NCBI GenBank assembly: GCA_035540635.1
Contig: DATLGH010000110.1
Coordinates: 1 to 46,156 of the forward strand
Length of the DNA: 46,156 bases
Direction: 5' to 3'
From: Egibacteraceae bacterium
GTDB taxonomy: Bacteria; Actinomycetota; Nitriliruptoria; Euzebyales; Egibacteraceae
In this document: positions 6,978 to 34,315 of the stretch, piece after piece
Numbering within the stretch: position 1 is the first letter of the stretch
Layout of the letters: the number at the start of each line of letters is the position of its first letter
The notes under the pieces: generated by a model
The model's input: the letters and a program-made list of their open reading frames with translations, nothing else
The model's database searches: none
Told to the model about the DNA's origin: nothing
Made by a program: the position numbers and the translations under genes

Positions 6978-7358
6978 ATGTCCACCTCACGCATAGACGA
7001 CGCGCCGGGCGGCTTGCCCCGCAACTACCTGCGGCCCTGCCTGCTCCTCCTCCTCGGTGAGGGAGCCTCGCACGGCTACGAGCTGCTCGAGCAGGTGGGC
7101 GTCCTCGGGCTCGAGAAGGCCGACCCGGGTGGTCTCTACCGCACTCTGCGGGCCATGGAGCAGGAAGAGCTCGTGCGCTCGTGGTGGGAGCACTCCGAGT
7201 CGGGTCCCGCGCGGCGGACGTACGACCTCACGGAGGAGGGGCGTGACTGGCTCCACGCCTGGGCTGGATCCCTGCGTGAGGTGCACCGGCTGCTCGGGCT
7301 CTACCTCGACCGCTACGAGGCCCTGGTCGAGGGCTCGCACTCGACCCTCACGTCATGA
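6978..7358 (+). CDS. PadR-family transcriptional regulator
   Basis: LLLLLGEGASHGYELLEQ...GGLYRTLRAMEQEELV is a typical PadR winged helix. Confidence 0.8.
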   Translation: MSTSRIDDAPGGLPRNYLRPCLLLLLGEGASHGYELLEQVGVLGLEKADPGGLYRTLRAMEQEELVRSWWEHSESGPARRTYDLTEEGRDWLHAWAGSLREVHRLLGLYLDRYEALVEGSHSTLTS

Positions 7359-8128
7359 GGATCGCGCTCGCCGGCAAGGGCGGTGCCGGCAAGACGACGA
7401 CGTCGGCGACGCTGGCACGGCTTCTCGCCCTGGGCGGGACGCCCGTCGTCGCCATCGACGCCGACAGCAACCCCAACCTCTCCTTCGCCCTCGGCGTCCC
7501 GCGGGAGGAGGCGACGCAGGCCAGGGGCCTGCCGACCTCGCTCGTCTCCCGCCGCCTCGGTGGCCCGGGCCTGACCCAGTCGCTCGACACCGCCCTGGAC
7601 CGGCACGCGATCGTCGCGCCCGACGGGGTCCGCGTCCTGCTCATGGGGATGCCCGCGCACGCGGAGGAGGGATGCCTCTGCTCGGCGCACGCGACGGTCA
7701 GCGCGGTCCTCGAGGACCTCGGAACCCGGCAGGAGGTGGTGACGATCATGGACATGGAAGCGTCACCGGAGCACCTGAGCCGGGGCACCGCCCGCCACGT
7801 CGATCAGCTGCTGCTCATCACCGAGCCCTACTACCGGTCGCTGGAGACGGCGCGCAGGATGGCGGCCCTCGCCGCGGAGCTGCCGATCTCCCGCGTGGCC
7901 GTGGTCGGCAACAAGATCCGCTCTGAGGGCGACGCCGAGGCGATCGGCGCCTTCTCGGAGCGACACGGCCTCGAGGTGGCCGGTTACGTCCCGTGGAGCG
8001 ACGCCGTGACGGAGGCCGACGCGCAGGGCGTCCCCCTCGTCGAGCGCGACCCCGACGGTCCCGCTGTCCAGGCCATCGCCGAGCTCGCTCGGGGACTCGT
8101 CGCGTACCAGTTCCAGACGGCGGGTTAG
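7355..8128 (+). CDS. CooC/MinD-family P-loop ATPase (putative Ni-insertion accessory protein), paralog 1
   Basis: Deviant Walker A GKGGAGKTTT, DADSNPNL, and CxC motif GCLCSAHA. ATGA overlap with the PadR gene. Confidence 0.85.
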   Translation: MRIALAGKGGAGKTTTSATLARLLALGGTPVVAIDADSNPNLSFALGVPREEATQARGLPTSLVSRRLGGPGLTQSLDTALDRHAIVAPDGVRVLLMGMPAHAEEGCLCSAHATVSAVLEDLGTRQEVVTIMDMEASPEHLSRGTARHVDQLLLITEPYYRSLETARRMAALAAELPISRVAVVGNKIRSEGDAEAIGAFSERHGLEVAGYVPWSDAVTEADAQGVPLVERDPDGPAVQAIAELARGLVAYQFQTAG

Positions 8129-8723: not shown

Positions 8724-8726
8724 CGT

Positions 8727-8806: not shown

Positions 8807-8977
8807 CTACTTCCTGGCGGACCGGAGGGCGAAGCGCTGGAGGGTCTTGCTCACGTTCTGCACCTTGTGCTTGGTGCGGAGGTGGTCAGCGACCTTGCTC
8901 AGCAGCTCGTCCTCGCTCGAGGCCTTGAAGTGGCCCTTGCAGGTTGCGCCTGCATCCGTTCAGCGGAACTCGGGCAT
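8807..8977 (-). CDS. DUF1059-like small protein with in-frame TGA at codon 6 (candidate selenocysteine; otherwise a nonsense pseudogene)
   Basis: Strong RBS AAAGGGAGGAG lies 7 nt before the ATG at 8977. Translation is MPEFR-TGA-TDAGATCKGHFKASSEDELLSKVADHLRTKHKVQNVSKTLQRFALRSARK. The TGA aligns with the Cys of the in-window paralog at 27903..28076 (MAVQLACADVGVACGAV...). Confidence 0.5.
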
Positions 8978-9273: not shown

Positions 9274-9283
9274 GCGATGCTCC

Positions 9284-9529: not shown

Positions 9530-9541
9530 TGTCGCTCCTCC

Positions 9542-9808
9542 CTACCGCACGGCTTGGGCGTAGCGCTGCACGTTCGACGCGATGCGGGGCAGCATCTGGT
9601 TGATCTCCCGCAGCCCCTGGTTCACGCGCTGGACGGGCGGGCCGATCGACAGCACCTGCTCCTCCACGGCGCGCACGCCGAAGGCGACGTTGGCGAGGGT
9701 AGCCGAGATCGACTTCAGCCTCGTGGTGATGACGACGAGGTAGATCGCGAGCACGAGGACGAGGAGGACCACCTCGATGAAGGTCAGGACGACGAGCAAA
9801 CCACTCAT
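9542..9808 (-). CDS. small single-pass membrane protein, family A
   Basis: Internal ATG at 9808 with ATGA overlap. Product MSGLLVVLTFIEVVLLVLVLAIYLVVITTRLKSISATLANVAFGVRAVEEQ... Confidence 0.6.
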   Translation of the reverse strand: MSGLLVVLTFIEVVLLVLVLAIYLVVITTRLKSISATLANVAFGVRAVEEQVLSIGPPVQRVNQGLREINQMLPRIASNVQRYAQAVR

Positions 9809-10077
9809 ACTTGACTCCAGAGCTGATCGTGCCGCTTGATCTCTTCCTTCAGCTTGTCCACGGTGTTGGCCGTGCCCTGCAGCTGCCAGGCCGTCGCGGT
9901 GTTCGCCGCGAGCTTCGTCGCCATCTGCCACACGTCGGCGAGACCGCGGTCGATGTCCTGGACGAACCGCAGCAGCAGGGTGAGGAGGGCGATCACGACG
10001 GCGATGACGACGGCGCCGATGCCGAGCGCCACCGACCACATCGCGATCTCCTGCGGTGCGTACGCGAGAACCCTCAT
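9805..10077 (-). CDS. small single-pass membrane protein, family C
   Basis: Product MRVLAYAPQEIAMWSVALGIGAVVIAVVIALL... ATGA overlaps with both neighbouring genes. Confidence 0.6.
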   Translation of the reverse strand: MRVLAYAPQEIAMWSVALGIGAVVIAVVIALLTLLLRFVQDIDRGLADVWQMATKLAANTATAWQLQGTANTVDKLKEEIKRHDQLWSQV

Positions 10078-10361
10078 GCCTGGGCCTCCAGTGCCTCACG
10101 GGCTTCCGTCGCGCGCTCGAGGATCGCCTTCGCGGTGGCGTTGACGGAGTCGATGTCCCACAGGGGCAGCGTCGTCTGCCGACCCTGGTCGAGGCCGACG
10201 AGGATCTCCTGCGCCTGCTTGGCGATCCGGGCCGCCCGCGACAGGATCGCCGAGACGACGATGACGACGACCCAGACGATGGCGAAACCGATTCCGAGGC
10301 CGAGCCACCACCCGAAAAGGTGCGGCTCGCCAGGGGCGTGCTCAGCTAACGTAACGAGCAT
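10074..10361 (-). CDS. small single-pass membrane protein, family C-like
   Basis: RBS AAGGAG. Product ...LFGWWLGLGIGFAIVWVVVIVVSAIL... Confidence 0.55.
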   Translation of the reverse strand: MLVTLAEHAPGEPHLFGWWLGLGIGFAIVWVVVIVVSAILSRAARIAKQAQEILVGLDQGRQTTLPLWDIDSVNATAKAILERATEAREALEAQA

Positions 10362-14453: not shown

Positions 14454-14732
14454 ATGTGTCTCGGCATTCCCGGCAAGATCGTGGAGCTGGTCGACCCCGA
14501 CAACGGGATCGCCAAGGCGGACGTGAACGGGGTGCGCCGCAACGTCTCCATCCAGCTCATCCCCAAGGAAGAAGGCGGCGTCGAGGTCGGTGACTGGGTC
14601 CTGATCCACGTCGGCTTCGCGATGTCGAAGATCGACGAGCAGGAGGCCGAGGACACCTTCCGGTTCCTCGAGCAGCTCGGTGCCATGTACGAGGAGGAGC
14701 TCTCCGACCTCGCCAAGAGCGACATCGAGTAG
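14454..14732 (+). CDS. hypC: hydrogenase maturation factor HypC/HupF
   Basis: Starts MCLGIPGKIVE (the canonical MC(L)xIP N-terminus) after RBS GGAGGA. Carries ...VGDWVLIHVGFAM. Confidence 0.85.
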   Translation: MCLGIPGKIVELVDPDNGIAKADVNGVRRNVSIQLIPKEEGGVEVGDWVLIHVGFAMSKIDEQEAEDTFRFLEQLGAMYEEELSDLAKSDIE

Positions 14733-14742
14733 GAGGCTCACT

Positions 14743-15369
14743 GTGAGCCAGCAGTCGACGGCAATGGTGCGGTCGGCGATCGATGACGCGAGAGCCCGCC
14801 GGCGGGCACCCGGCGAGGCGGTGGCGGCCGAAGCCGAGCGCGTTGCGCGAGCCTGCCACGCGATGGCGGCGCGCTTCCACCAGGGCGGCAAGCTCGTCGG
14901 CTTCGGCAACGGCGGCACGACCTCGGACGCCCAGCACGTGTCGGTGGAGTTCGTGCACCCCGTCATCGTGGGCAAGCGCGCCCTGCCGGGGATCTCGCTC
15001 ACCAGCGACGTCGCGACGATCACCGGCGTGGCCAACGACGAGGGCTTCACCGAGGTCTTCGCCCACCAGCTGCGCTACCTCGCCAACCCCGAGGACATCG
15101 CGCTGGGGGTCTCCTCCGACGGGCGGTGCGCGAACGTCCTGCGGGGCCTCCAGGTCGCCAAGGAGCGCGGGCTGCTCACCGTCGCGCTCGTCGGCGGTGA
15201 CGGCGGGCCGATCGCCGCGGATCCCGCCGTCGACCACGTGCTCCTCGCCAGGTCCCCCGATCCCCGTGTCGTGAAGGAGGTCCACGTGACCCTCTACCAC
15301 ATCCTGTGGGAGCTGGTGCACGTGTTCTTCGAGCAGCCGGGCGTGCTGAGCCCCGAGGTCCTGCGGTGA
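14743..15369 (+). CDS. SIS-domain protein (GmhA/DiaA-like), paralog 1
   Basis: GTG start with RBS GGAGG. Contains the GFGNGGTTSDAQH motif. Confidence 0.75.
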   Translation: MSQQSTAMVRSAIDDARARRRAPGEAVAAEAERVARACHAMAARFHQGGKLVGFGNGGTTSDAQHVSVEFVHPVIVGKRALPGISLTSDVATITGVANDEGFTEVFAHQLRYLANPEDIALGVSSDGRCANVLRGLQVAKERGLLTVALVGGDGGPIAADPAVDHVLLARSPDPRVVKEVHVTLYHILWELVHVFFEQPGVLSPEVLR

Positions 15370-15614
15370 GCACCGATCCGATCCCTCTCGGCACGCAGCT
15401 CCCGCCGCCCGTCCCCGAGTGCTACGGAGACGTCTGCATCACGTGCTCCGACGAGGCGGTGGAGGTGACGGTCCTCGAGATGCTCGACGACGGGCTCGCC
15501 CGGGTGGACACCGGTGAGAGCGTCGAGGTGGTGAGCGTCATGCTCGTCGACGCCGAGGTCGGCGCTCGCATCCTCGTGCACGCCAAAGAAGCCATCGTCC
15601 GTCTGGAGGACTGA
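15366..15614 (+). CDS. HypC/HupF-family-like protein lacking the canonical N-terminal Cys (CITC instead)
   Basis: GTGA overlap with the upstream gene. Segment ARVDTGESVEVVSVMLVDAEVGARILVHAKEAI resembles the HypC beta-barrel C-terminal region. Confidence 0.45.
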   Translation: MSTDPIPLGTQLPPPVPECYGDVCITCSDEAVEVTVLEMLDDGLARVDTGESVEVVSVMLVDAEVGARILVHAKEAIVRLED

Positions 15615-15615
15615 G

Positions 15616-16305
15616 GTGGACGCCGACGACCAGGTCGGGGGCATCGAGGCCCTCTACCCCTTCCTCTACGCCGACGCGTCCAACGTCGACGCCGTGCTCG
15701 CCGAGGTGCGCCGCTCCACGGTGGCCAAGGCCGCCGAGATCGTGGCGCTGCGCGAGGAGGTCTTCGACCTCCACGCCGAGCGGCTCGTCGCCTGCGCCGA
15801 GGCGATGGCCGCCTCCTTTGCCGCCGGCGGCAGGCTCTTCGCGTTCGGCAACGGCGGTTCGAGCACGGACGCCCAGGACGTCGTCAACACCTTCCTCCAC
15901 CCCGGCCTCCCCACCGGACCGGCCGTCCGTCCGCTGCCGGCGCTGTCGCTCACCGGCGACGTGGCCGTGCTGACGGCCCTGTCCAACGACGTCGGGTTCG
16001 ACGTCGTCTACGCTCGGCAGATCGCCGCCTTCTCCCGCGCCGGCGACATCGCGTTCGGGCTGTCGACGAGCGGCGGGTCGGCGAACGTGCTGCGGGCGTT
16101 CGACGAGGCCTCGCGACGCGGCCTCGTCACCGTGGGGCTCGCCGGCTACGACGGGGGCCAGATGGCTGACGCCGACACCATCGACTACCTGTTCGTTGTG
16201 CCGTCCTCCTCGGTGCACCGCATCCAGGAGGCCCAGACCACGCTGTACCACGTCCTGTGGGAACTCACCCAGACGGCCCTGGAAGGGCGAGGAGCGAAGC
16301 TATGA
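15616..16305 (+). CDS. SIS-domain protein, paralog 2
   Basis: Contains FAFGNGGSSTDAQD. Confidence 0.75.
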   Translation: MDADDQVGGIEALYPFLYADASNVDAVLAEVRRSTVAKAAEIVALREEVFDLHAERLVACAEAMAASFAAGGRLFAFGNGGSSTDAQDVVNTFLHPGLPTGPAVRPLPALSLTGDVAVLTALSNDVGFDVVYARQIAAFSRAGDIAFGLSTSGGSANVLRAFDEASRRGLVTVGLAGYDGGQMADADTIDYLFVVPSSSVHRIQEAQTTLYHVLWELTQTALEGRGAKL

Positions 16306-17426
16306 AGTTCGTCGACGAGTACCGCGACGCCGAGATCGCCAAGCGCCTGGCGAAGGAGATCGCCGAGCTCGCGGGGTCTCGGGAGTACAAGTTCATGGAG
16401 GTGTGCGGGGGTCACACGCACACCATCTACCGCCACGGCCTCGAGGACTACCTGCCCGAGAACGTGCACCTCATCCACGGCCCCGGCTGTCCCGTCTGCG
16501 TGATCCCGATGGGGCGGGTCGACGACGCGATCGCCATCGCCGAGCAGGACGACGTCATCATGACCTCGTTCGGCGACATGATGCGCGTGCCCGGCGGACG
16601 CGGCTCGTTCTTCGACTCGAACGCCGCCGGGGCGGACATCCGCATGGTGTACTCCCCGCTCGACGCGCTGAAGATCGCGCGCAACAACCGTGACAAGCGC
16701 GTCGTGTTCATGGCGATCGGCTTCGAGACCACGGCCCCCTCGACCGCGGCGACCGTGCTGCGTGCGGCCGCCGAGGGCCTCGACAACTTCTCCATCTTCT
16801 GCAACCACGTGACGATCATCCCGGCGATCAAGGCGATCCTCGACTCACCGGACCTGCGCCTCGACGGCTTCATCGGACCCGGCCACGTGTCGACGGTGAT
16901 CGGCTGCCGCCCCTACGAGTTCATTCCCCGGGACTACGGCAAGCCGATCGTCTGCTCAGGCTTCGAGCCGCTCGACATCCTCCAGGGCGTCTACATGATC
17001 CTCAAGCAGATCCAGGAGGGCCGCTCGGAGGTGGAGAACCAGTACAGCCGCGTGGTGCCCTGGGACGGCAACCGCCGTGCCCTCGAGGTCATCGGCCGCA
17101 CGATGGAGCTCCGCCCGTACTTCGAGTGGCGCGGGCTCGGCTTCATCTCCCAGTCGGCGATGCAGGTCCGCGAGGAGTACGCCGCCTTCGACGCCGAGCG
17201 CGTCTTCGACGTCCCCGGGGTCCGCGTGGCCGACCCGAAGGCCTGCCAGTGCGGTGAGGTCCTGAAGGGTGTGCTGAGGCCGTGGGAGTGCAAGGTGTTC
17301 GGCACCGCGTGCACACCGGAGACCCCGATCGGCACCTGCATGGTGTCGAGCGAGGGCGCCTGCGCCGCGTACTACAACTTCGGGCGCTTTACGCGTGAGC
17401 GCGTCCGGGAGGCGACCGTCACATGA
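16302..17426 (+). CDS. hypD: hydrogenase maturation factor HypD
   Basis: MKFVDEYRD...EVCGGHTH...GPGCPVCV carries the HypD CGxH and GPGCPVC motifs. Confidence 0.9.
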   Translation: MKFVDEYRDAEIAKRLAKEIAELAGSREYKFMEVCGGHTHTIYRHGLEDYLPENVHLIHGPGCPVCVIPMGRVDDAIAIAEQDDVIMTSFGDMMRVPGGRGSFFDSNAAGADIRMVYSPLDALKIARNNRDKRVVFMAIGFETTAPSTAATVLRAAAEGLDNFSIFCNHVTIIPAIKAILDSPDLRLDGFIGPGHVSTVIGCRPYEFIPRDYGKPIVCSGFEPLDILQGVYMILKQIQEGRSEVENQYSRVVPWDGNRRALEVIGRTMELRPYFEWRGLGFISQSAMQVREEYAAFDAERVFDVPGVRVADPKACQCGEVLKGVLRPWECKVFGTACTPETPIGTCMVSSEGACAAYYNFGRFTRERVREATVT

Positions 17427-18628
17427 CCGACCAAGCGCACTCCGGCCCCCCCGTCCCCGGCGACGTGCAGGAGCGCTCCGCCGACTGGGCGGAGGAGGCC
17501 ATCCGCGAGCACGAGGAGTTCCACGAGCTCGCCCCCCACACGCCGGGCGAGGAGCACCTGTCCCGTGAGGAGCAGGTGCTCCAGAAGATCGAGCGGGCCC
17601 GGGCGCGCCGGGCGCGGATCAAGGAAACGCGCATAACGATGTCGCACGGGGCGGGCGGCAAGGCCACCCAGACGCTCATCGACGCGGTCTTCCTCGAAAG
17701 CTTCCGCAACCCCACCCTCGAGCGCATGGAGGACCAGGCGCTGCTCGACGTGGGTGGCACCCGCCTGGCATTCACGACCGACTCGTTCGTCGTCTCGCCG
17801 CTCTTCTTCCCCGGTGGCAACATCGGCGACCTCGCCGTCAACGGCACGGTCAATGACCTCGCGGTGTCGGGCGCGCGCCCGCTGAGCCTGTCAGCCGCAT
17901 TCATCCTCGAGGAGGGCTTCCCGATCGAGGACCTGCGACGCATCGTCGAGACGATGGCGACCGCAGCCGCTGCGGCCGGGGTCCAGATCGTCACCGGGGA
18001 CACGAAGGTGGTGCCCCGCGGCAAGGGCGACGGCTGCTACATCAACACCGCCGGCGTCGGCGTGCTCGAGCGGGACATCAGCCTGTCCGCGACGAGCGCG
18101 CAGCCCGGCGACGCGATCATCGTCTCCGGCCCGGTGGGCGAGCACGGGGTCACCGTCATGCTCGCCCGCGGAGAGCTCGAGATCGAGTCCGACGTCGTCT
18201 CCGACACCGCGCCGCTCCACGAGCTCGTGGATCGGCTGCTCGACGCGACGAGGGGGGTGCGCTGCATGCGCGACGCCACCCGCGGCGGCGTCGCCACCGT
18301 GCTCAACGAGATCGCAAAGGCGTCCCAGACGGCCGCGGTGCTCGATGAGGGCAAGGTGCCGATGCGCCCGGACGTGTTCGGGGCGACGGAGATCCTCGGC
18401 ATCGACGCCCTCTACGTCGCCTGCGAAGGGCGCATGGTCGTCGTCGTCGACGGCGCGGAGGCCGACGCCGCGCTCGAGGCCCTCCACTCGCACCCGCTCG
18501 GCAAGGGCGCTGCGGTCATCGGCTCGGTGAAGGAGGACCCGCCGGGGCTCGTGCTGCTGAAGACGACCTTCGGCGGCACCCGGATCGTCGACGTCCTCGT
18601 CGGCGACCCGCTCCCCCGCATCTGCTGA
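17423..18628 (+). CDS. hypE: hydrogenase maturation factor HypE (AIR-synthase-like), possibly with an N-terminal extension
   Basis: MSHGAGGKATQTLI... followed by the C-terminal PRIC. ATGA overlap with hypD. Confidence 0.9.
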   Translation: MTDQAHSGPPVPGDVQERSADWAEEAIREHEEFHELAPHTPGEEHLSREEQVLQKIERARARRARIKETRITMSHGAGGKATQTLIDAVFLESFRNPTLERMEDQALLDVGGTRLAFTTDSFVVSPLFFPGGNIGDLAVNGTVNDLAVSGARPLSLSAAFILEEGFPIEDLRRIVETMATAAAAAGVQIVTGDTKVVPRGKGDGCYINTAGVGVLERDISLSATSAQPGDAIIVSGPVGEHGVTVMLARGELEIESDVVSDTAPLHELVDRLLDATRGVRCMRDATRGGVATVLNEIAKASQTAAVLDEGKVPMRPDVFGATEILGIDALYVACEGRMVVVVDGAEADAALEALHSHPLGKGAAVIGSVKEDPPGLVLLKTTFGGTRIVDVLVGDPLPRIC

Positions 18629-18643: not shown

Positions 18644-19081
18644 CTACGGCCCTGTCGGCTCGGGCTCGTCCATGAGCTCGGTGACCTGCGCGACGGCCCG
18701 AGCGAACGCGACGGTGGAGAAGGTCTTCAGCCGCAGGTTCACCCCGCCCCGCGGCCCGTCGGCCTTGAGGCTGAGCGAGACGTCGGGGTGGCGCATGTAC
18801 CAGCCGCCGACGGCGCGCAGGGCGCTCGCGCAGGCCGCCTTGTCGGGGAACTCGAGGAGGAACACCCGCAGGGTGACCTCCTCCGGCGGTGCGGTCGGGG
18901 TGAGGCGCGGACCGACGGCCTTCGCGGCCCCCGGCAGTGAGAGCTCCGGCAGGCGGGTGAGGCGCTGCTGGAGCCCCATCTGGTTCTTGAGCGCCTGTTG
19001 CAGCTCGTTCAGCGTGGTGGTCTGCTCCTCGACGTCGTAGGCCCCGTCGGGGAAGTTCACCACCACGCGCAGGTCGCTCAC
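18644..19081 (-). CDS. hypothetical protein, last gene of the moxR-vWA operon
   Basis: 4-nt overlap with the vWA gene. Confidence 0.5.
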   Translation of the reverse strand: MSDLRVVVNFPDGAYDVEEQTTTLNELQQALKNQMGLQQRLTRLPELSLPGAAKAVGPRLTPTAPPEEVTLRVFLLEFPDKAACASALRAVGGWYMRHPDVSLSLKADGPRGGVNLRLKTFSTVAFARAVAQVTELMDEPEPTGP

Positions 19082-20442
19082 AGCGCCCGCGCCACGAACG
19101 CCTCGAGCTGGGCGAGGTTGCGTACCTCCACGACCTCGTCACACGCCGGCGCGAACGCGCTCATGACCGAGTCGCCCGTGTCCCAGTGGTCCCGTGGCTC
19201 GGGGTTCAGCCAGTACAGCCGGCGGGCGCGGTCGGCGACACGCTCGAGGTACTCGACGCCGGTGCTGCGGAAGTTGCCCCGCGCGTCGCCCATGACGAGG
19301 ACCGTCGTGCGTGGCGCGATGTCCCTGCCGGCGCACTGCCAGAACTGTTCGAGGCAGTTGCCGTACCACGACTGCCCGTCGCCCTCCACGACGTTCGCCT
19401 CGCTCTCGACCCGGGCGAGCGCGGCGGGAAAGCTCCCCGCGGACTGCAGCAGGCCGGTCACCTCGTCGAGGGCGTCGACGAACACGAAGGTGCGGACCCG
19501 CTGGAACTGCGTGGCGAGCCCGTAGGTGAGCTCCAGCGTGAACTTGGCGAAGGCCCGCATCGAGCCGGAGATGTCGCAGAGCAGGACGATCTCGGGCTTG
19601 CCGGCGACCGGGCGGCGGAATCGCGGCTCGACGAGCGCGCCGCCGGTGGACAGCGATCCGCGGATGGTGCGGCGAAGGTCCAGCCGCCCCTGCCTGGCAC
19701 GCCGGCGCCGGTGGGACAACCGCATGGTGAGTTTGCGGGCGAGCGGTACGAGGGCCGCGCGCATGCGCTCGAGGTCGGACTGGTTGGCCCAGAGGAAGTC
19801 GACCTCGTCGGGCGGGGGCCTGCGGTTGCGTCCCGAGAGCTCCTCGGGGTTGAGCACGGCGAGCATCTCCGAGAACACCTCTTGGGTGAGCATGTCCCGG
19901 AAGGCCTGCATCCGCTCGGTGAGGTCCTCGGTGATGGCCCGGCGCTCGAGGACGGAGTAGCCCTTGCCGCTCACCTCGTCCTCGTAGAGCTGGTTGAGGA
20001 TGGCGTCGAGGTTCAGGCCCCGCAGGGCCCGGAAGACCGACGCGTCCTCGCTGAGGTTCGTCCCCGACTCGATGTCGCCGTGCTCCTGGACCCGGTCGTG
20101 GGCAAGGTGACGCAGGCGTTCGCGGTCGTTCGTGCGCAGCGCGTCGGTGAGCGTCTCGGTCGGGTCACCGCCACGCGCCACGCGCTCGGCCGTCGACGGG
20201 CCGCGGCGCGACGGGAAGTAGAGGTCGAAGGCGCGATCGAAACGCGGGCGCAGCGCCGGTTCCTTGCAGAGGGTTCCCGCCAGGCCCGCCCGCACGACCT
20301 CCCGGTGCTCGAGCGGCAGGGTCGGCAACGCCTCGAGCGCGTCGACGATCTCCGGCGCCGACACCGCGATGCCGGCGGCCCGCAGCTCGCGGGAGAAGGC
20401 GACGACGTGCTCCGCCAGGCCGTGGTCGCTCGGGTCATCCAT
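19078..20442 (-). CDS. VWA-domain protein (CoxE-like)
   Basis: Contains IVLLCDISGSM and the LYWLNPEP motifs typical of CoxE/VWA partners of MoxR ATPases. Confidence 0.8.
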   Translation of the reverse strand: MDDPSDHGLAEHVVAFSRELRAAGIAVSAPEIVDALEALPTLPLEHREVVRAGLAGTLCKEPALRPRFDRAFDLYFPSRRGPSTAERVARGGDPTETLTDALRTNDRERLRHLAHDRVQEHGDIESGTNLSEDASVFRALRGLNLDAILNQLYEDEVSGKGYSVLERRAITEDLTERMQAFRDMLTQEVFSEMLAVLNPEELSGRNRRPPPDEVDFLWANQSDLERMRAALVPLARKLTMRLSHRRRRARQGRLDLRRTIRGSLSTGGALVEPRFRRPVAGKPEIVLLCDISGSMRAFAKFTLELTYGLATQFQRVRTFVFVDALDEVTGLLQSAGSFPAALARVESEANVVEGDGQSWYGNCLEQFWQCAGRDIAPRTTVLVMGDARGNFRSTGVEYLERVADRARRLYWLNPEPRDHWDTGDSVMSAFAPACDEVVEVRNLAQLEAFVARAL

Positions 20443-21316
20443 CGTCTCTCTCAGCGAGCTCGCGCTCCACGGTCGCCTGGTCCACACGGTGCTTGAGCAG
20501 CGTTCCACCGGTGCGGACGAGCGTCTCCCGGTCCGTGGGCGACAGCCCGAGGTCAACGAGGGTCGCCGCCCAGTCGAGCGTCTCGGCGATCGACGGTGGC
20601 TTCTTCAGCTCGAGGCTGCGCATGGCCTGGACCATGCGCACCACCTGCTCGGCGAGCTGCTCGGAGATGCCCGGAACGCGGGACAGGATGATCGCCCGTT
20701 CGCGCTCCACCGACGGGTAGTCCATCCACTGGTAGAGGCAGCGGCGCTTGAGTGCCTCGGACAGCTCGCGCGTGGCGTTCGAGGTGAGGATGGTGACCGG
20801 CCGGGCCGTCGCGCTGATACGTCCGAGCTCGGGGATGGTGACCTGGAAGTCCGCCAGCACCTCGAGCAGCAGCGCCTCGGTCTCCATCTCGATGCGGTCG
20901 ACCTCGTCGATGAGCAGCACGACGGGATCGGGGGCCCGGATGGCGTCGAGGACCGGACGGGACAGCAGGAACGGCTCGCTGAAGACGTCGTCGAGGCCGG
21001 CACCCTGGCCGTTGCCCCCGGCCTGCAGCCCGAGCAGCTGCTTGCGGTAGTTCCACTCGTAGAGGACCTTCGTCTCGTCCAGGCCCTCGTAGCACTGCAA
21101 CCGCACCAGCCGCGCGCCCGTGGAGCTCGCGAGTGCCACGGCGAGCTCGGTCTTGCCGGTGCCGGCCGGGCCCTCGATGAGCAATGGCTTGCCGAGCCTC
21201 GCCGCGAGATACACGGTCGTGGCCGTGGCGGCGTCGGCGAGGTAGCCCCCCCGGCGCAGCACGTCGGCGGCCTGCTCGACCGACGCGATCTCGACCCCCG
21301 TCGCGGGAGCGGCCAT
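20435..21316 (-). CDS. MoxR-family AAA+ ATPase (CoxD-like)
   Basis: ATG at 21316 with RBS AAAGGAGG. Walker A GPAGTGKT and Walker B LLIDEVDR. Confidence 0.9.
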   Translation of the reverse strand: MAAPATGVEIASVEQAADVLRRGGYLADAATATTVYLAARLGKPLLIEGPAGTGKTELAVALASSTGARLVRLQCYEGLDETKVLYEWNYRKQLLGLQAGGNGQGAGLDDVFSEPFLLSRPVLDAIRAPDPVVLLIDEVDRIEMETEALLLEVLADFQVTIPELGRISATARPVTILTSNATRELSEALKRRCLYQWMDYPSVERERAIILSRVPGISEQLAEQVVRMVQAMRSLELKKPPSIAETLDWAATLVDLGLSPTDRETLVRTGGTLLKHRVDQATVERELAERDDG

Positions 21317-21353
21317 GGCGCCTCCTTTGTACGTCTCGTACGTCTCGGCCAGG

Positions 21354-21692
21354 CTACAGGCGGATGAGGACGCGAATGCCGTCGGCTGTCGGCTGCCGCT
21401 CGATCCAGGCGTGGATGGGATCCACGTCACCGAACGCCTCGGCGATCGCGCTGCCCTCGGGAAGTGGGCCCCGCACCCGCACGAAGCGCTCGTTGAAGGC
21501 CTGGACCTCGTCCTGGCCCGGGACGACGCTCTCGAGCCAGCGGACCGGAAAGGGGTGATCGGTGAGCCCCGAAGGCGGGCGGTCGCAGGTGAACGAACGG
21601 AACGGCAGTTCGGCGATCTGGGCGGGGCGGCGCCCGTCAGGCTCCGCCACCCGGCCGCACTGCGGACATTCCCCCGGATCGGTCATCGCCAT
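21354..21692 (-). CDS. hypothetical protein with an N-terminal CPQC motif
   Basis: ORF with a GC3 bias, located in the maturation operon. Confidence 0.45.
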   Translation of the reverse strand: MAMTDPGECPQCGRVAEPDGRRPAQIAELPFRSFTCDRPPSGLTDHPFPVRWLESVVPGQDEVQAFNERFVRVRGPLPEGSAIAEAFGDVDPIHAWIERQPTADGIRVLIRL

Positions 21693-27902: not shown

Positions 27903-28076
27903 CTACGTCGTTCTCGCTTCGTCGGCCGCGTAGTCGATGAGCGTCTGCGTGAGCACGACGCCGTGCTTCTCGCGCGCATGCGCGGCCACCTGCGCGAGCA
28001 GGTCCTCCACGGTCGCGGCTCGGTGGACGGCCCCGCAGGCCACCCCCACGTCGGCGCAGGCGAGTTGGACGGCCAT
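27903..28076 (-). CDS. DUF1059-like small protein (57 aa), Cys-containing form
   Basis: Not in the ORF track because it is under the length cut-off. RBS GGGAG precedes the start. Product is MAVQLACADVGVACGAVHRAATVEDLLAQVAAHAREKHGVVLTQTLIDYAADEARTT. Confidence 0.6.
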   Translation of the reverse strand: MAVQLACADVGVACGAVHRAATVEDLLAQVAAHAREKHGVVLTQTLIDYAADEARTT

Positions 28077-28116: not shown

Positions 28117-28368
28117 CTACGTCCCCGCGTCGACCTTCGCTGCGAAGTCCTCCAGGGCGTCGGCGACGGCGGTGAGGTTGCCGCTCACGTCGGCCAGCGC
28201 CGGTCCGGCAGGCCCCGTGCGGTGCGCGACCGCGCGCACGCCGAAGGTGACCTTGCCGAGCGTGTCGTTGACGTGGCTGAGGATGACCACGATCCAGATG
28301 AGGTAGAAGGCCAGCGCGGCGACGAGGAGGGCGACGAGGCCGAGCGTGACGATCGCCGCTGCGGACAT
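28117..28368 (-). CDS. small single-pass membrane protein, family A
   Basis: ATG at 28368. Product MSAAAIVTLGLVALLVAALAFYLIWIVVILSHVNDTLGKVTFGVRAVAHR... Confidence 0.6.
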   Translation of the reverse strand: MSAAAIVTLGLVALLVAALAFYLIWIVVILSHVNDTLGKVTFGVRAVAHRTGPAGPALADVSGNLTAVADALEDFAAKVDAGT

Positions 28369-28385
28369 CGGCCGATTCCTCTCGG

Positions 28386-28634
28386 TCAGGCGAGACGGCG
28401 GAGCGCGCTCACGTAGCGGGCCGCGTTGTCGGTGACGCGACGAGCCACGTCGCGGGTGTCGGCCAGGGCGGGCAGGGGGTCGAGGGTACCGGTCAGCCGG
28501 ACGCCGTGCTCGAGGATCTCGTCGGCGTACTGGCGGATCTCCAACGCCTGGGCGATGACCCGGTTGGCGAGGAGGACGACGAGCGGGATGACCGCGAGCA
28601 GCCCGACGGCGTTCGCGACCCACCACAGCGTCAC
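28386..28634 (-). CDS. small single-pass membrane protein, family B
   Basis: GTG at 28634 with RBS GGAGG. Product VTLWWVANAVGLLAVIPLVVLLANRVIAQALEIRQYADEILEHGV... Confidence 0.55.
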   Translation of the reverse strand: MTLWWVANAVGLLAVIPLVVLLANRVIAQALEIRQYADEILEHGVRLTGTLDPLPALADTRDVARRVTDNAARYVSALRRLA

Positions 28635-28802
28635 GCGCGACCTCCTCGTCGTCGTGCCGGTCCGCACCTCGCCTGGCTGCCCAAAGCCGGGATACCTGCC
28701 CCCGGCGGACGACCCGACTATATCATTGCGGAGTAGTCACCCACCGCGCGCTCGGGAGGTCCGGGGCAGTGCGGATGCCGCCGCTGGACGAGGAGGACGC
28801 AA

Positions 28803-29576
28803 ATGAAGCTCGGAATCGTCGGGAAGGGCGGGGTAGGCAAGACGACCGTGTCCGCCCTCATCTCGCAGGCCTACGCCGCGCGCGGCGCCCGCGTCGTTGC
28901 CATCGACACCGACTCCAACCCCAACCTCGGCATGTCGCTCGGCATGGACTGGGACGAGATGGAGGCCGTGCCGGTCATGCCCCGTGCCCTGATCGTCGGC
29001 AGCGAGGGAGACCTGACGGCCCAGGAGGTGATCGAGAAGTACGGTCGCCCCACACCGGCCGGCCCGGTCCTCCTCTCGGCCATCCGCGTCACCCAGGCGG
29101 GCTCCGGCTGCACCTGCTCCGGCCACGCGACGGTGCGCAACTTCCTCGGCGAGGTGCTCGCGGAGGAGGCCGACGTGACGCTCATCGACATGGAGGCCGG
29201 CCTCGAGCACCTGAGCCGCTCCGGCGGCACCCTCGCGTACGCCGACGTCCTGCTCGTCGTGATGGAGCCGAGCCGCAAGTCGGTCATCACCGCTGCGCGC
29301 ACCCTCGCCCTCGCCGAGGAGCTCGGCATCCCCAGGGTGTACGGCCTCGGCAACAAGGCCCGCATGCCCGAGGACGCCGAGTTCTTCGCCGAGTTGGCTG
29401 CGGAGTACAACGTCCCCCTCGCGGGGGTCATCCCCCTCGATCCCGCCGTGGCCGACGCCGACCGGGCGGGGTCCGCGGTGACCGCCACACCCCCCGAGGC
29501 GGTGCGTGCGGCGCTCGACGCCGTCATCGACCTCATCGAGGGCTCCTCAGTGAGCGACCAGGCCCCCGTGCGCTGA
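28803..29576 (+). CDS. CooC/MinD-family P-loop ATPase, paralog 2
   Basis: Walker A GKGGVGKTT, DTDSNPNL, and CxC motif GCTCSGHA. Confidence 0.85.
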   Translation: MKLGIVGKGGVGKTTVSALISQAYAARGARVVAIDTDSNPNLGMSLGMDWDEMEAVPVMPRALIVGSEGDLTAQEVIEKYGRPTPAGPVLLSAIRVTQAGSGCTCSGHATVRNFLGEVLAEEADVTLIDMEAGLEHLSRSGGTLAYADVLLVVMEPSRKSVITAARTLALAEELGIPRVYGLGNKARMPEDAEFFAELAAEYNVPLAGVIPLDPAVADADRAGSAVTATPPEAVRAALDAVIDLIEGSSVSDQAPVR

Positions 29577-29654: not shown

Positions 29655-30101
29655 ATGACCCGCCTCACCGTCTCCAAGCTCGCTGAACGCGTCGGCAGCA
29701 CGCCGTCCGCGCTGCGCTACTACGAGCGCATCGGCCTGCTGCCCGCCCCCCGGCGGAGCGCCGGGGGCTACCGGCTCTACGACGAGACCGCCGAGGAGCG
29801 CGTGCGGTTCATCAAACGGGCCCAGCGCTTCGGCCTGCGCCTCGACGAGATCAGTGACCTCCTGTCCATCCGCGAGCGCGGGCAGTGTCCGTGCGGGCAC
29901 ACCCGCGACCTCCTCGCGGGGCGCCTCGCGGAGATCGACGAGGAGATGGCCGGCCTCGCCCGGCTGCGCCAGGACATCGAGCGCATGGTCGAGGACCTGC
30001 CGTCCAGCGAGGACCGCGCCGACTGGGCCTGCGGCGGCGAGCTCGTCACGCTGACCCGCCGCCCCCCCGATCACCACGCCAACACCAACCTTGAAGCCTG
30101 A
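29655..30101 (+). CDS. MerR-family transcriptional regulator
   Basis: Contains LTVSKLAERVGSTPSALRYYERIGLL and candidate Cys metal ligands (CPCGH, WACGG). Confidence 0.85.
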   Translation: MTRLTVSKLAERVGSTPSALRYYERIGLLPAPRRSAGGYRLYDETAEERVRFIKRAQRFGLRLDEISDLLSIRERGQCPCGHTRDLLAGRLAEIDEEMAGLARLRQDIERMVEDLPSSEDRADWACGGELVTLTRRPPDHHANTNLEA

Positions 30102-30126
30102 TGAGAGACGAGAAAGGACACCGACC

Positions 30127-30423
30127 ATGAGCACCACCGACACCGGCTGCCAGTGTGGCTGCAGCACGATGACCGTCGTCACGGAGGCGGCCGAGCCCTG
30201 CGGCTGCGGCTGCGAGTGCTGCGCCGCCGTCCCACAGAGCGCCCAGGAGGAGATCACCCAGCTGCGTCAGCTTCGCGAGAACGTCGAGCAGCGCCTGCAG
30301 ACGCTCCAGGCGAGCGGCGAAGGCGCCGCCGCGGCATGCGGCTGCGGCTGCGGCAGCGCGAGCAGCTCCGGCCCGGCCGAACCGTGCGCCTGCGGCTGCG
30401 ACTGCTGCCAGGTCGCTTCCTGA
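30127..30423 (+). CDS. Cys-rich metallothionein-like protein (CxCxC clusters flanking a coiled segment)
   Basis: Product MSTTDTGCQCGCSTM...CGCGCECCAAV...CGCGCGS...CACGCDCCQVAS. Confidence 0.55.
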   Translation: MSTTDTGCQCGCSTMTVVTEAAEPCGCGCECCAAVPQSAQEEITQLRQLRENVEQRLQTLQASGEGAAAACGCGCGSASSSGPAEPCACGCDCCQVAS

Positions 30424-30481: not shown

Positions 30482-31219
30482 CTAGGACGCGGGGAGGAGG
30501 TCCTCGGCGAGCGCCGCGAGCGCCGCCACGGCCGGCGCGTCGGGGTCGAGGTCAAGGGGCGCGATCCCCTTGCGGTCGGCCTCGACGATCACCGGGTCGT
30601 CGGGCACACCCACGACCTCCACCCCGGGCGGAAAGGCCGCACGGATCCGCTCGAGGTCGTCCTCGCCCCGGATGCGGTTGGCGAGGACCACCGTGCGCAT
30701 CGCCGCGCGCTCCCCCGCGAGCTCGGCGGCACGGGCGCCGACCTCGAGCGACTTCGACATCGCCTCGACGACGATGACGACCACGTCGACGGCGTTCTCC
30801 GCCAGGCGCGTGAGCGTGCCGATCCCCGCCTCGCAGTCCGCGATGACCACCGATGCGCCGAACTCCCCGGACCCGAGCAACTGCTCGGGTGAGAGCCCGC
30901 ATCAGGGACAGCCCGGCTCCGGGTTCTCGATACGCGAGACGACGGCGAGCCGCACGTTGTCCGGCGCGTCGGAGCCGAAGCGGTCCATGAGCTCGGCCCA
31001 GCCAGGGGCGTGCTCCTCCTCGCCTTCGGCGAGCGCCTGACGCATCGCGTCGAGCCGCTCGGTCTCCGTGTCACCGATGCCCAGCGAGATGCCGAGGTTC
31101 GGGTTGCTGTCGCAGTCGAGCGCGACCACCCCGCGGCCCTGGCGGCCGATGGTGCGCGCCAGCACGGCCGACGTCGTCGTCTTGCCAGAGCCGCCCTTGC
31201 CGACGACCGCGATCTTCAT
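30482..31219 (-). CDS. CooC/MinD-family ATPase interrupted by one in-frame TGA (30902-30904) inside its CxC metal motif (candidate selenoprotein; otherwise a nonsense pseudogene)
   Basis: The N-terminal part (31219->30905) reads MKIAVVGKGGSGKTTTSAV...ENPEPGCP, then TGA, then CGLSPEQLLGSGEFGASVVIADCEAG... (30901->30482) in the same frame. The total is 239 aa, the normal family length. The TGA lies in the motif aligned to GCLCS and GCTCS of the paralogs. Confidence 0.5.
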
Positions 31220-31974
31220 GCGCCTGCCTCCTCAGCACGGAGCCGTTCCACCAGCAAGTCTATCGCCTTGACCGCCGGTGAGTCCGGGGCCTCCTCGATC
31301 GGGGGACGGCCTTTCCGGTCCGCTTCGGCGAGCTCCTCGTCGAGCGGCACGGCACCGACGACCTCAAGGCCCGTGCGGTCCTGCACCCGCTCGACGTCAC
31401 CGTCCTCGCAGACCTTGTTCACGACCGCCACGACCCGCGGCGCGTCCTCGGCCAGCGCGAGGCGCGCCAGGCGCTTCGCGCTGAGGATCGACTTCGCCAT
31501 CGGCTCCACCACCACGAGGATGGTGCGGGCGTAGCGACCCCAGCCGAGAAACGGCTGGCGGGTGCCCCCGGGGAGGTCGCCGACGATGTTCCACTTGTCG
31601 TCGGGCAGCTGGGCGGTGATCTGGCGGAACGCGAACTGCGAGCGAATGAGCCCGCGCCCGGAGTCGCGGATCTTGCCGAACTGCAGGACGCGCACACCGT
31701 CGGGCCCGCGCACGGCGTAGCGCTCGACGGCGTCGGCGGCCGTGAGCTCCCCGGCCAGCACGTACCGGGGGCCGGCCTCCGCCGGGTTCTCGACCACCGC
31801 CTCGTCGGGGATCCCGGCGTCGGTGGTCTCGACGCCGAGCGAGTAGGCCAGGCCGGGAAGCGGGTCGGAGTCGACGACGAGCACCGGCTCCCCACGTCGG
31901 GCGAGGAGGCGGGCGAACGTCCCCGCGATCGCGGACTTGCCGGCTCCGCCCTTGCCTACGAATGCAACGCGCAT
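31216..31974 (-). CDS. CooC/MinD-family P-loop ATPase, paralog 3 (no CxC motif)
   Basis: Walker A GKGGAGKS and DSDPLPGL. ATGA overlap with the downstream paralog. Confidence 0.8.
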   Translation of the reverse strand: MRVAFVGKGGAGKSAIAGTFARLLARRGEPVLVVDSDPLPGLAYSLGVETTDAGIPDEAVVENPAEAGPRYVLAGELTAADAVERYAVRGPDGVRVLQFGKIRDSGRGLIRSQFAFRQITAQLPDDKWNIVGDLPGGTRQPFLGWGRYARTILVVVEPMAKSILSAKRLARLALAEDAPRVVAVVNKVCEDGDVERVQDRTGLEVVGAVPLDEELAEADRKGRPPIEEAPDSPAVKAIDLLVERLRAEEAGA

Positions 31975-32047
31975 CCGGCTACCGTATCCGGTCGGTGAGC
32001 AGGGCGGTAACAGCCCGGGCGCGCGCTGCTCCTATCATGGCGGGCAG

Positions 32048-34315
32048 ATGGCCACACGTGTGCGCACCCGCGTCCGGGTCGACGGCATCGTCCAGGGCGT
32101 GGGCTTCCGTCCCTTCGTGCACTCGCTCGCGACGCGGTGGCACCTGGCGGGGCTGGTCGGCAACGACACGCGTGGGGTGTTCATCGAGGTCGAGGGCGCG
32201 CCGGAGCACGTTGCGGACTTCGTCTCCGCGCTCGACCGGGAGGCGCCGCCGCTGGCCGTCGTCGAACGCGTGGAGACGGAGCCGGTGCCCCTGCGGGGGG
32301 AGCGCGGCTTCGTCATCGTCGACAGCGCCACGGGCGGGCGCCGCGACACGCTCGTGTCGCCCGACACCGCGACGTGCGCCGACTGCCTCGCCGAGATGGC
32401 CGATCCCGCCGATCGCCGTCACCGCTACCCGTTCACGAACTGCACGAACTGCGGGCCCCGCTTCACGATCGTGCGGGACGTGCCCTACGACCGGCCGAAC
32501 ACCACCATGTCGGCCTTCCCGATGTGCGCCGACTGCGCCGCGGAGTACGACGACCCCGCCGACCGCCGCTTCCACGCCCAGCCGGTGTGCTGCCCGGCCT
32601 GCGGTCCGGCGCTGTCCCTGCTCGACGCCGGCTACGAGCCGGTCGAGGGCGACCCGATCACCGCGACCGCGTCGCTGCTGCGGGCCGGGCGCGTCGTCGC
32701 CGTGAAGGGCCTCGGTGGCTACCACCTCGCCGCGGTCGCCGCCGACGAGGACGCGGTCGCCGCTCTGCGTGACCGCAAGCACCGCGAGGACAAGCCGTTC
32801 GCGGTGATGGTCACCGACGTCGCGGCTGCCCGTGCCCTGTGCACGGTGACCCCCGCAGAGGAGGCGCTGCTCACGAGCACCCGTCGTCCCGCCGTCCTCC
32901 TGCGGCGCCGCCCGGACGCGCCCGTCGCCGCGGCGGTCGCGCCCGGCAACCGCCACCTCGGCCTCATGCTGCCCTACACGCCACTGCACCACCTGCTCGC
33001 CGCAGAGGTCCGCGAGCCGTTCGTCCTGACGAGCGGCAACGTCTCCGACGAGCCGATCGCCTACCGCGACGGGGACGCCCGGGAGCGCCTGTCTCCCATC
33101 GCCGACGGGTTCCTCGTGCACGACCGACCCATCCACATCCGCACGGACGACTCGGTCACGCGGGTGTTCCGCGAGCGCGAGCTCGTCATCAGGCGCTCGC
33201 GCGGGTACGTGCCCCGGCCCATCACGCTTGCCGCGCCCGCCCGCCGCCCGGTCCTGGCCTGCGGCGCCGAGCTGAAGAACACTTTCTGCCTCGCCCGCGG
33301 ACGGCACGCGTTCGTGTCCCACCACATCGGCGACCTCGAGAACTACGAGACGCTGCGGTCGTTCGTGGACGGCATCGCGCACTTCAGCCGCCTGTTCGAC
33401 ATCGTCCCGGAGCTCGTCGCCCACGACCTCCACCCCGAGTACCTGTCCACCAAGTACGCCCTCGACCTGCCCGACGCGGAGCTGCTCGGTGTCCAGCACC
33501 ATCACGCCCACATCGCGTCGTGCCTCGCGGACAACGGGCACCCGGGACCGGTGATCGGGGTGGCCTTCGACGGGCTCGGCTACGGCACCGACGCCACGCT
33601 GTGGGGGGGCGAGGTGCTCGTCTGCGATCTCCACGGCTTCGACCGGGCGGCGCACCTCGCGACCCTGCCGATGCCCGGAGGGGCGAAGGCCATCAGGGAG
33701 CCCTGGAGGATGGCGGCGTCCTACCTCGACGCCGCCGGCCTCGCGGCCGAGCACCACGACGTCGCCCAGCGCAACGCCGAGTGGTGGGATCGCGTGCTCG
33801 CCGTCGCGCGGTCCGGTGTCTCGGCCCCGCTCACCTCGAGCGCGGGGCGCCTGTTCGACGCGGTGGCGGCGCTGCTCGGGGTCCGCGACCGGGTCCACTA
33901 CGAGGGGCAGGCGGCGGTCGAGCTCGAGCAGCGCGCAGACCCGGCCGAGCGAGGGGCCTATCCCGTCACCCTCGACGCCGGCGCCCCGCTGCGGGTGCGG
34001 ACCACCGACCTCGTGCGGGCCGTCGTCGCCGACCAACGGGCCGGCACCGATGTCGCGGTCGTCGCGGCCCGCTTCCACAACAGCCTCGCGGCAACCGTCG
34101 CCGAGGTGTGCGCGAGGGTGCGCGAGCAGACGGGCATCGGCACGGTGGCGCTGTCGGGAGGCGTCTGGCAGAACCTGCGCCTGCTCGGCAGCACGGTGGA
34201 CGGGCTCGAGGCGCGTGGGCTCGCCGTGCTGCTCCACCGCCAAGTGCCCCCGAACGACGGTGGGATCAGCCTTGGCCAGGCTGCGGTCGCCGCAGCCGCC
34301 GACCGCAGGGATTGA
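32048..34315 (+). CDS. hypF: carbamoyltransferase HypF
   Basis: Acylphosphatase N-terminus (VRVDGIVQGVGFRPFV), two CxxC...CxxC zinc fingers, YrdC-like and Kae1-like regions. About 755 aa. Confidence 0.9.
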   Translation: MATRVRTRVRVDGIVQGVGFRPFVHSLATRWHLAGLVGNDTRGVFIEVEGAPEHVADFVSALDREAPPLAVVERVETEPVPLRGERGFVIVDSATGGRRDTLVSPDTATCADCLAEMADPADRRHRYPFTNCTNCGPRFTIVRDVPYDRPNTTMSAFPMCADCAAEYDDPADRRFHAQPVCCPACGPALSLLDAGYEPVEGDPITATASLLRAGRVVAVKGLGGYHLAAVAADEDAVAALRDRKHREDKPFAVMVTDVAAARALCTVTPAEEALLTSTRRPAVLLRRRPDAPVAAAVAPGNRHLGLMLPYTPLHHLLAAEVREPFVLTSGNVSDEPIAYRDGDARERLSPIADGFLVHDRPIHIRTDDSVTRVFRERELVIRRSRGYVPRPITLAAPARRPVLACGAELKNTFCLARGRHAFVSHHIGDLENYETLRSFVDGIAHFSRLFDIVPELVAHDLHPEYLSTKYALDLPDAELLGVQHHHAHIASCLADNGHPGPVIGVAFDGLGYGTDATLWGGEVLVCDLHGFDRAAHLATLPMPGGAKAIREPWRMAASYLDAAGLAAEHHDVAQRNAEWWDRVLAVARSGVSAPLTSSAGRLFDAVAALLGVRDRVHYEGQAAVELEQRADPAERGAYPVTLDAGAPLRVRTTDLVRAVVADQRAGTDVAVVAARFHNSLAATVAEVCARVREQTGIGTVALSGGVWQNLRLLGSTVDGLEARGLAVLLHRQVPPNDGGISLGQAAVAAAADRRD

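Follow-up and report, generated by a model that had tools for sequence, protein, structure and literature searches.

A 46,156-nt stretch of DNA from an Egibacteraceae bacterium (contig DATLGH010000110.1; hereafter the window, to whose full length all coordinates refer unless a related locus is named) carries on its minus strand, at 31219..30482, a gene for a CooC-type ATPase of the MinD/ParA class that is interrupted by an in-frame TGA at codon 106, and we conclude that this UGA is very probably a recoded, translated selenocysteine (Sec) codon. The original prediction, made from the letters of the window, had proposed Sec at this site, and the proposal is supported by the presence of the same TGA in 46 other species, by selection on the codons downstream, and by a hairpin that follows the UGA. 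The predicted insertion of Sec, rather than of another amino acid, at position 106 is strongly supported, and the gene represents a new selenoprotein family with Cys homologues that uses the standard recoding mechanism.

An in-frame TGA at a conserved cysteine position

Translation of the target gene gives one 245-codon frame in which TGA 30904..30902 is the sole internal stop and TAG the terminal one, and no other lesion is present in the whole gene. The two halves had been predicted to share a frame and to be split only by this TGA, as translation confirms, while the predicted length of 239 aa is corrected to 245 residues. The GC content at third codon positions (GC3), 0.93 upstream of the TGA and 0.95 downstream, makes both halves coding-like in a window of 71% GC. 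The TGA is identical in two further assemblies (JGI 3300072952 and Logan SRR8438990). Because TGA also ends most of the other genes of the window (25 of 37 other high-GC3 frames), the genetic code is standard, with no reassignment. When the window was searched for in-frame TGAs with coding-type GC3 on either side, the target and two trivial cases were all that emerged. Pfam assigns the read-through product to the CbiA/ParA/MinD-type P-loop ATPases, and NCBIfam has no specific model for it.

The stop codon had been placed at a Cys position of the GCLCS and GCTCS motifs of two paralogues in the window, and a four-way alignment indeed puts the TGA at the second Cys of CxC. The location of that motif stands as predicted; its composition is refined to C-P-U-C (U, Sec), with three invariant chalcogen positions.

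In a protein database search, Cys occupies the TGA column in all of the closest 120 full-length homologues, within the almost invariant motif PGCP-C-CGLSPEQLL. These homologues are 58–72% identical to the target, are ~245 aa long, derive mainly from metagenome-assembled genomes (MAGs) of Actinomycetota, and in many cases bear the JGI name 'CO dehydrogenase maturation factor'. No full-length Sec form appears among the top homologues of this search. Because gene callers split TGA-containing genes, DNA was scanned directly with the exact pattern CCNGGNTGYCCN-TGA-TGYGGNNTNTCNCCNGAN in one genome per GTDB species, which yielded 46 loci with the same TGA in 46 species besides the window organism. 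The orthologous column, whose inspection had been suggested as a check, is therefore Cys in every annotated full-length homologue and TGA in 46 genomes. The hosts of the TGA form are mostly Actinomycetota (Geodermatophilaceae, Nocardioidaceae, Mycobacteriales, Propionibacteriales, Pseudonocardiaceae, Acidimicrobiales, Acidimicrobiia, Thermoleophilaceae, and Sporichthyaceae) and include the isolate Pseudonocardia nigra DSM 104088; one MAG carries the label Chloroflexota. Leaving aside TGA loci truncated by a contig end, each locus shows an open frame between the P-loop start and the TGA and, after it, a further 134–148 open codons before the real stop.

The Sec-form proteins are 48–97% identical to one another (median 63%), and Sec forms are nearer to the target (74%) than is the best Cys form (73%). 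The two forms are interleaved, with a Cys form as the nearest relative of 12 of 40 Sec forms, at up to 89% identity, which suggests repeated switching between Cys and Sec. Downstream of the hairpin, the ratio of nonsynonymous to synonymous substitution rates (dN/dS) is 0.14–0.43 at a dS of ~0.7–1.0 (Nei-Gojobori). Judged by these ratios, the downstream half is under purifying selection, and the comparison of sequences shows that this half is translated and that recoding of the UGA is conserved.

Current annotation shortens the family to its N-terminal fragment. Specifically, RefSeq lists the protein of P. nigra, WP_219415758.1, as a 'nucleotide-binding protein' of 105 aa that ends at the TGA, the N-terminal fragment in the window is GenBank HVM01007.1, a 105-aa 'AAA family ATPase [Egibacteraceae bacterium]', and the two 90% clusters have 15 members each, all of 103–108 aa. 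The predicted selenoprotein family is widespread, being found in at least 47 organisms including a cultured isolate, and gene callers and surveys of hydrogenase clusters should join both fragments.

A hairpin downstream of the UGA

The UGA is followed by a hairpin of the Sec insertion sequence (SECIS) type. It had been described as ACCCGAGC-AGUU-GCUCGGGU, 12 nt after the UGA, and we find it at 30890..30871, with the stem beginning at the 12th nt. The local RNA around the hairpin has a folding energy of −33.9 kcal/mol (z = −3.55 versus shuffled sequences). The published consensus for bacterial SECIS (bSECIS) elements comprises a loop of 3–9 nt with G within its first two positions, an upper stem of 4–16 bp, a distance of 16–37 nt from UGA to loop, and a minimum free energy (MFE) of at most −7.5 kcal/mol (PMC13188914). 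The hairpin agrees with it in every respect, having a 4-nt loop, AGUU, with G at position 2 followed by U, a stem of 7–8 bp, a spacing of 19 nt, and an MFE of −8.8 to −14.5 kcal/mol. An Rfam search of the hairpin region returned no family and only chance-level matches (E > 2). The hairpin resembles the SECIS of the Escherichia coli fdhF type in lying in the coding region just past the UGA, at a fixed distance from it, and in displaying G-U in a small apical loop, and differs from it in sequence, in the loop AGUU, in lacking a bulged U, and in owing its stem to the codons preferred for a conserved peptide.

The 46 TGA loci share the pattern UGA UGY GGN NUN UCN CCY GAG CAG UUG CUC RGN, except that one has CUG in place of UUG. 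The 6-bp core stem is paired in 45 of 45 distinct Sec-form sequences, versus 16–41% for slid partner columns. Codons 112–115 (GAG CAG UUG CUC) have a codon entropy of 0–0.17 bits, versus 0.9–1.5 bits in other Glu, Leu, and Pro columns. In addition, Pro111 is encoded by CCU or CCC and never by CCG, and Gly116 is GGG in 30 of 38 sequences.

For comparison we used the DNA of 11 distinct Cys-form homologues. The exact sequence GAGCAGTTGCTC is present in 44 of 46 Sec forms and in none of the 11 Cys forms (Fisher p = 4e-10), while the core stem is fully paired in 46 of 46 and in 5 of 11, respectively (p = 1e-5). The Cys forms closest to the Sec forms retain the stem, with CAG CUG CUC and the loop AGCU. 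The high-GC codons preferred for P-E-Q-L-L-G are complementary to one another, so that the stem follows largely from the peptide itself. In contrast, UUG, a rare Leu codon that brings G-U into the apical loop, occurs in 45 of 46 Sec forms and in 2 of 11 Cys forms, and the Sec-specific element is the loop U supplied by this codon. Since the stem is too invariant for covariation, the structural argument rests on the conservation of synonymous sites and on the contrast between Sec and Cys forms.

Decoding of the UGA

In two related genomes, an Acidimicrobiales MAG (L029) and an uncultured Actinomycetota MAG (L046), a tRNA-Sec gene lies ~1.5 kb from the orthologous TGA gene, within the hydrogenase cluster (ARAGORN, anticodon TCA; positions in Table 1). 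Their scores against Rfam RF01852 are 65.7 and 69 bits, respectively, above the threshold of 47. No tRNA-Sec was found in 12 other scanned loci, namely 11 Cys-form loci and the metagenome contig L059, and no selA, selB, or selD was seen in the open reading frames (ORFs) flanking the tRNA-Sec genes of L029 and L046.

The window holds a second candidate selenoprotein gene, for a small DUF1059 protein. The original prediction had pointed to this second TGA at a Cys position, and the case is real and recurs in other genomes. The gene starts MPEFR-TGA-TDAGATC, with a strong Shine-Dalgarno sequence upstream and no alternative start, and its paralogue in the window, 28076..27903, has Cys in the corresponding column. 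L012 (~3332-3490, minus strand; 44% identity over the aligned stretch) and L059 (4083-4250, plus strand) have this TGA too; in all, three distinct sequences carry TGA in the motif M-x-x-EFR-U-x-D...C, and other loci have EFRC. No consistent SECIS accompanies this TGA: in the window a mere 11 nt separate the hairpin from the UGA, and the hairpin of L012 and L059 is another one. The occurrence of two independent conserved UGA-for-Cys genes in one window argues that the organism decodes Sec. A perfect 16-bp tandem repeat, TGGTCTTGCTCAACGA, is present in 2.9 copies in the intergenic DNA just downstream of the DUF1059 gene, at 8726-8772.

Several observations weigh against Sec insertion at codon 106 or against the role proposed below for the protein. 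Neither selA, selB, selC, nor selD, nor any tRNA gene, is found within the 46-kb window. Covariation analysis of the stem gave no double compensatory changes, its sequence being nearly invariant. Base-pairing alone is not Sec-specific, as the stem forms in Cys homologues as well; the SECIS originally proposed is supported by the agreement with the published bSECIS consensus and by the freezing of synonymous sites in TGA forms only. The TGA form of L017, a Propionibacteriales MAG (TGA at ~2968, plus strand), is the sole one with the loop AGCU (CUG); it is a copy either tolerated as a variant or on its way between the Sec and Cys states. Furthermore, we infer the metal specificity and the heterodimer discussed below from homology and gene order only.

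Among other explanations, the one that keeps most weight, and yet is unlikely, is Sec-independent read-through, in which a near-cognate or suppressor tRNA would insert Cys or Trp and the hairpin would be a generic stimulator. The sel genes not seen for the window organism in its 46-kb window would fit this explanation, as would the fact that Cys is functional at the site in Cys forms; however, the SelB-dependent bSECIS model agrees with the loop G-U and with the spacing of 19 nt, tRNA-Sec lies inside the same cluster in two genomes, and, were Cys the product, a stop and a rare Leu codon would have been kept in 46 species without obvious benefit, although a single mutation would give TGC, the codon that close relatives use.

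The conserved UUG could also be read as a start codon rather than as the source of a loop nucleotide, in which case the gene would be split: translation would stop at the UGA and restart at UUG (30880), and a 105-aa P-loop piece would assemble with a 132-aa C-terminal piece. UUG is a legal start codon, it is conserved in 45 of 46 TGA forms, and ORF finders predict the 132-aa TTG ORF. No Shine-Dalgarno sequence precedes the UUG, however, and the seven codons from UGA to UUG keep C-G-[LIV]-S-P-E-Q while the G, L/I/V, and S codons vary synonymously; in the alignment of TGA forms, codons 107–111 keep C-G-[LIV]-S-P while third positions vary. Because amino acids are kept while synonymous sites vary, the interval from UGA to UUG is shown to be translated in frame, and the residues within it include the invariant Cys107 of the metal motif. 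With tRNA-Sec adjoining the gene in two genomes as well, a split gene is very improbable.

The alternative offered with the original prediction, a recent nonsense pseudogene in which TGC became TGA and the gene died, has practically no probability left, although TGA is one substitution from TGC and public gene callers stop the protein at 105 aa, for it is excluded by the same TGA in 46 other species, with frames intact on both sides and proteins 48–97% identical, by purifying selection (dN/dS 0.14–0.43) and a GC3 of 0.95 after the TGA, by the absence of further lesions in the target, and by the second gene of the window (DUF1059) with the same pattern.

Metal site, hydrogenase cluster and implications

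In sequence, the target comes closest, among proteins of solved structure, to CooC1 of Carboxydothermus hydrogenoformans (3kje, E = 1e-13), and its C104-P-U106 aligns with C112-Y-C114 of CooC1, so that the TGA column corresponds to C114, the second Cys of CxC. The CxC residues of CooC1 bind Ni at the dimer interface. The AlphaFold model of a Cys form 73% identical to the target (predicted local distance difference test, pLDDT, 89.7) adopts the MinD/ParA/NifH fold; of the structures listed as matching it, 3kje ranks first by TM-score (0.75) and by identity (27%), and by E-value FleN and MinD structures precede it. In the model, the motif lies in the least confident loop, immediately before the SPEQLLG helix. 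The target has both the deviant Walker A motif GKGGxGK[ST] and the MinD/ParA fold of the CooC family; its neighbours, both in the window and in every related locus, encode [NiFe]-hydrogenase subunits and Hyp proteins rather than CO dehydrogenase (cooS/acsA). We therefore name the protein 'CooC-type' rather than CooC.

Compared with CooC1 (3kje/3kjg/3kjh/3kji), which matures Ni,Fe-CO dehydrogenase, the target shares the deviant Walker A motif GKGGxGKT and a CxC at the same alignment position, and differs in its overall sequence (~27% identity), in its motif, C-P-U-C, with Sec second and an extra invariant Cys, and in its setting, a [NiFe]-hydrogenase cluster rather than the vicinity of cooS, where it is paired with a MinD-like partner that lacks the Cys motif. 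The CobW-related selenoproteins, G3E GTPases of COG0523, resemble it as a P-loop nucleoside triphosphatase (NTPase) metallochaperone family with Sec in place of a metal-site Cys, and differ in belonging to another NTPase family, in their motif, UxxC, and in genomic context. This CobW-related P-loop GTPase, in which Sec replaces a Cys of the metal-binding Cys cluster, is the nearest entry in the selenoprotein catalogue (PMC13188914). In the large subunits of [NiFeSe]-hydrogenases (FrhA, VhuA/VhuU), Sec replaces a nickel-ligating Cys (PMC13188914); there Sec resides in the catalytic subunit of anaerobes, whereas the Sec of the target would reside in an accessory ATPase. The C-terminal DPCxxCxxH motifs of the large subunits in the related loci are all Cys, with no TGA variants, and a scan of these loci for Sec in the other CooC paralogues, the large subunit, HypC/HypD, and the other two motif Cys returned none, only noise from non-coding frames.

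Four MinD/CooC-type ATPases are encoded in the window (Table 1), as in each such cluster, and the pair formed by the MinD-like partner and the target, with its ATGA overlap, is conserved in all related loci inspected. The Cys-form loci share the same synteny. Further genes of the cluster encode a DUF6390 protein, a CoxE/MoxR-like pair, a tetratricopeptide repeat (TPR) protein, two DUF1059 proteins, a MerR regulator, a Cys-rich protein, and small transmembrane proteins, and the related loci also hold a HycI/HybD peptidase and a NifU-like protein.

Table 1. Positions of the features discussed, in the window or, where named, in a related locus
Feature	Position	Strand	Remarks
CooC-type (MinD/ParA-class) ATPase, predicted selenoprotein gene, complete	30482..31219	-	245 codons including Sec106
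UGA codon 106, predicted to be read as selenocysteine	30902..30904	-	Cys column in homologues; TGA in 46 other species
C-P-U-C metal-binding motif, codons 104-107	30899..30910	-	C104, C106, C107 invariant in homologues
Deviant Walker A P-loop GKGGSGKT	31178..31201	-	Sequence motif
SECIS-type hairpin, stem ACCCGAGC/GCUCGGGU, apical loop AGUU (30882..30879)	30871..30890	-	19 nt from UGA to loop
MinD-like partner ATPase, GLIRS instead of CxC	31216..31974	-	Stop overlaps target start (ATGA)
CooC-type paralogue, GCLCS, all Cys	7355..8128	+	Alignment with target
CooC-type paralogue, GCTCS, all Cys	28803..29576	+	Alignment with target
HypF carbamoyltransferase, divergent from ATPase pair	31937..34315	+	Marks hydrogenase-maturation context
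[NiFe]-hydrogenase small subunit	773-1996	-	
[NiFe]-hydrogenase large subunit	3750-5570	+	
HypC (from 14454), two SIS-domain proteins, HypD (16257-17426), HypE (17423-18628)	14454..18628	+	
DUF1059 small protein, second candidate selenoprotein, TGA 8962..8960 at codon 6	8807..8977	-	Conserved Cys position
tRNA-Sec in L029	2892-2987	+	Adjoins HypC
tRNA-Sec in L046	3808-3903	-	Adjoins PadR-like genes

HypB, a SIMIBI-class dimeric NTPase, delivers Ni to the hydrogenase large subunit and is not known to be a selenoprotein. No HypA/HypB signature motif was found in the window, in a motif search that gives weak evidence of absence, and because of this CooC-type ATPases may fill the HypA/HypB role. 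The target is like HypB as a SIMIBI-class NTPase in putative Ni delivery, where CooC-type ATPases may take the HypB role (PMC9561532), and is unlike it in having no detectable sequence relationship to it beyond the P-loop. By gene content, the window matches the 'group 1m' hydrogenase cluster described from Actinomycetota, which has a CooC-type ATPase, DUF1059, a TPR protein, and small single-transmembrane proteins (PMC9561532).

These comparisons suggest the following model. UGA106 would be decoded as Sec, giving a full-length, 245-residue metallochaperone ATPase of the CooC type (MinD/ParA, SIMIBI class), and the hairpin in the stretch coding for S-P-E-Q-L-L-G would, by analogy with bacterial SECIS elements, recruit SelB with Sec-tRNA(Sec). 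Sec would replace the second ligand of the Ni-binding C-x-C, giving C-P-U-C. The protein is probably an ATP-dependent metallochaperone for nickel; it likely delivers nickel or another soft metal to the hydrogenase in an ATP-driven manner, probably jointly with its translationally coupled, Cys-less partner ATPase. The two proteins may form an asymmetric heterodimer in which one chain gives three chalcogen ligands (Cys, Sec, Cys). We infer that Sec may be of benefit by, e.g., speeding up the exchange of metal or, in aerobes, guarding against irreversible oxidation.

A catalogue from May 2026, which covers 119 families and subfamilies of prokaryotic selenoproteins, contains no MinD/ParA/CooC/CbiA-type ATPase and no DUF1059 protein (PMC13188914), and the BSepDB paper makes no mention of CooC/MinD-type ATPase or DUF1059 selenoproteins. 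Searches on Sec with CooC, MinD, nickel insertion, or group 1m, which covered part of the literature, returned nothing on the target protein. As far as that catalogue and the literature searched go, no MinD/CooC-type ATPase with Sec would have been reported before this one. Selenium would serve the assembly of hydrogenase, as part of a metallochaperone, and not catalysis at an active site. The organisms concerned are for the most part aerobic Actinomycetota of soil and desert, and the cluster type has been reported from cold-desert soils and proposed to contribute to atmospheric H2 oxidation, such that selenium availability could matter for trace-gas oxidation.

A wider reading, to which we would give somewhat less than an even chance, is that many lineages of desert and soil Actinomycetota depend on selenium for supplying nickel to their high-affinity, oxygen-exposed [NiFe]-hydrogenases, by means of a selenium-based metal-handling module with an easy Cys/Sec toggle. 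If so, the module would consist of the Sec-containing CooC-type chaperone (C-P-U-C) and, in some genomes, Sec-DUF1059 and an in-cluster selC. The peptide PEQLLG would already encode a near-SECIS hairpin, and the changes TGY to TGA and CUG to UUG would be enough to switch state; switching may be easy and repeated because this conserved peptide pre-adapts the hairpin.

Other features of the cluster were noted. A CoxE-like von Willebrand factor A (VWA) protein and a MoxR/CoxD-like AAA ATPase are encoded at 19078-21430 on the minus strand, inside the hydrogenase cluster; accessory genes of the CoxE and MoxR-CoxD types are usually linked with aerobic Mo-Cu CO dehydrogenase. Tandem paralogous small (~80–100 aa) single-transmembrane proteins are encoded at 9031-10100 (minus strand), 5646-5939 (plus strand), and 28117-28667 (minus strand), as in group 1m/1l clusters. 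In L046, an ORF that stands alone at 2654-3187 on the minus strand, flanked by PadR-like genes and the tRNA-Sec gene, covers no more than the last 177 aa of a [NiFe]-hydrogenase large subunit (up to ...DPCMPCTTH...); it may be a small protein in its own right or a fragment.

Immediately beyond the 3' end of the target, the plus strand encodes at 30091-30423 a Cys-rich 110-aa protein with repeated CGCGC/CxC runs and no Pfam match, whose gene overlaps the end of that for the MerR-family regulator, 29655-30101 (plus strand); the Cys-rich protein may be a metallothionein-like metal store. A conserved protein with the motif THGECSADCWCH and no Pfam match, encoded in the window at 6403-6924 (plus strand) and in L029 at 5376-5759 (minus strand), may be a metal sensor or binder of the cluster, and its copy in the window also has a His/Asp-rich tail, HSHSHDHDHDHDH.

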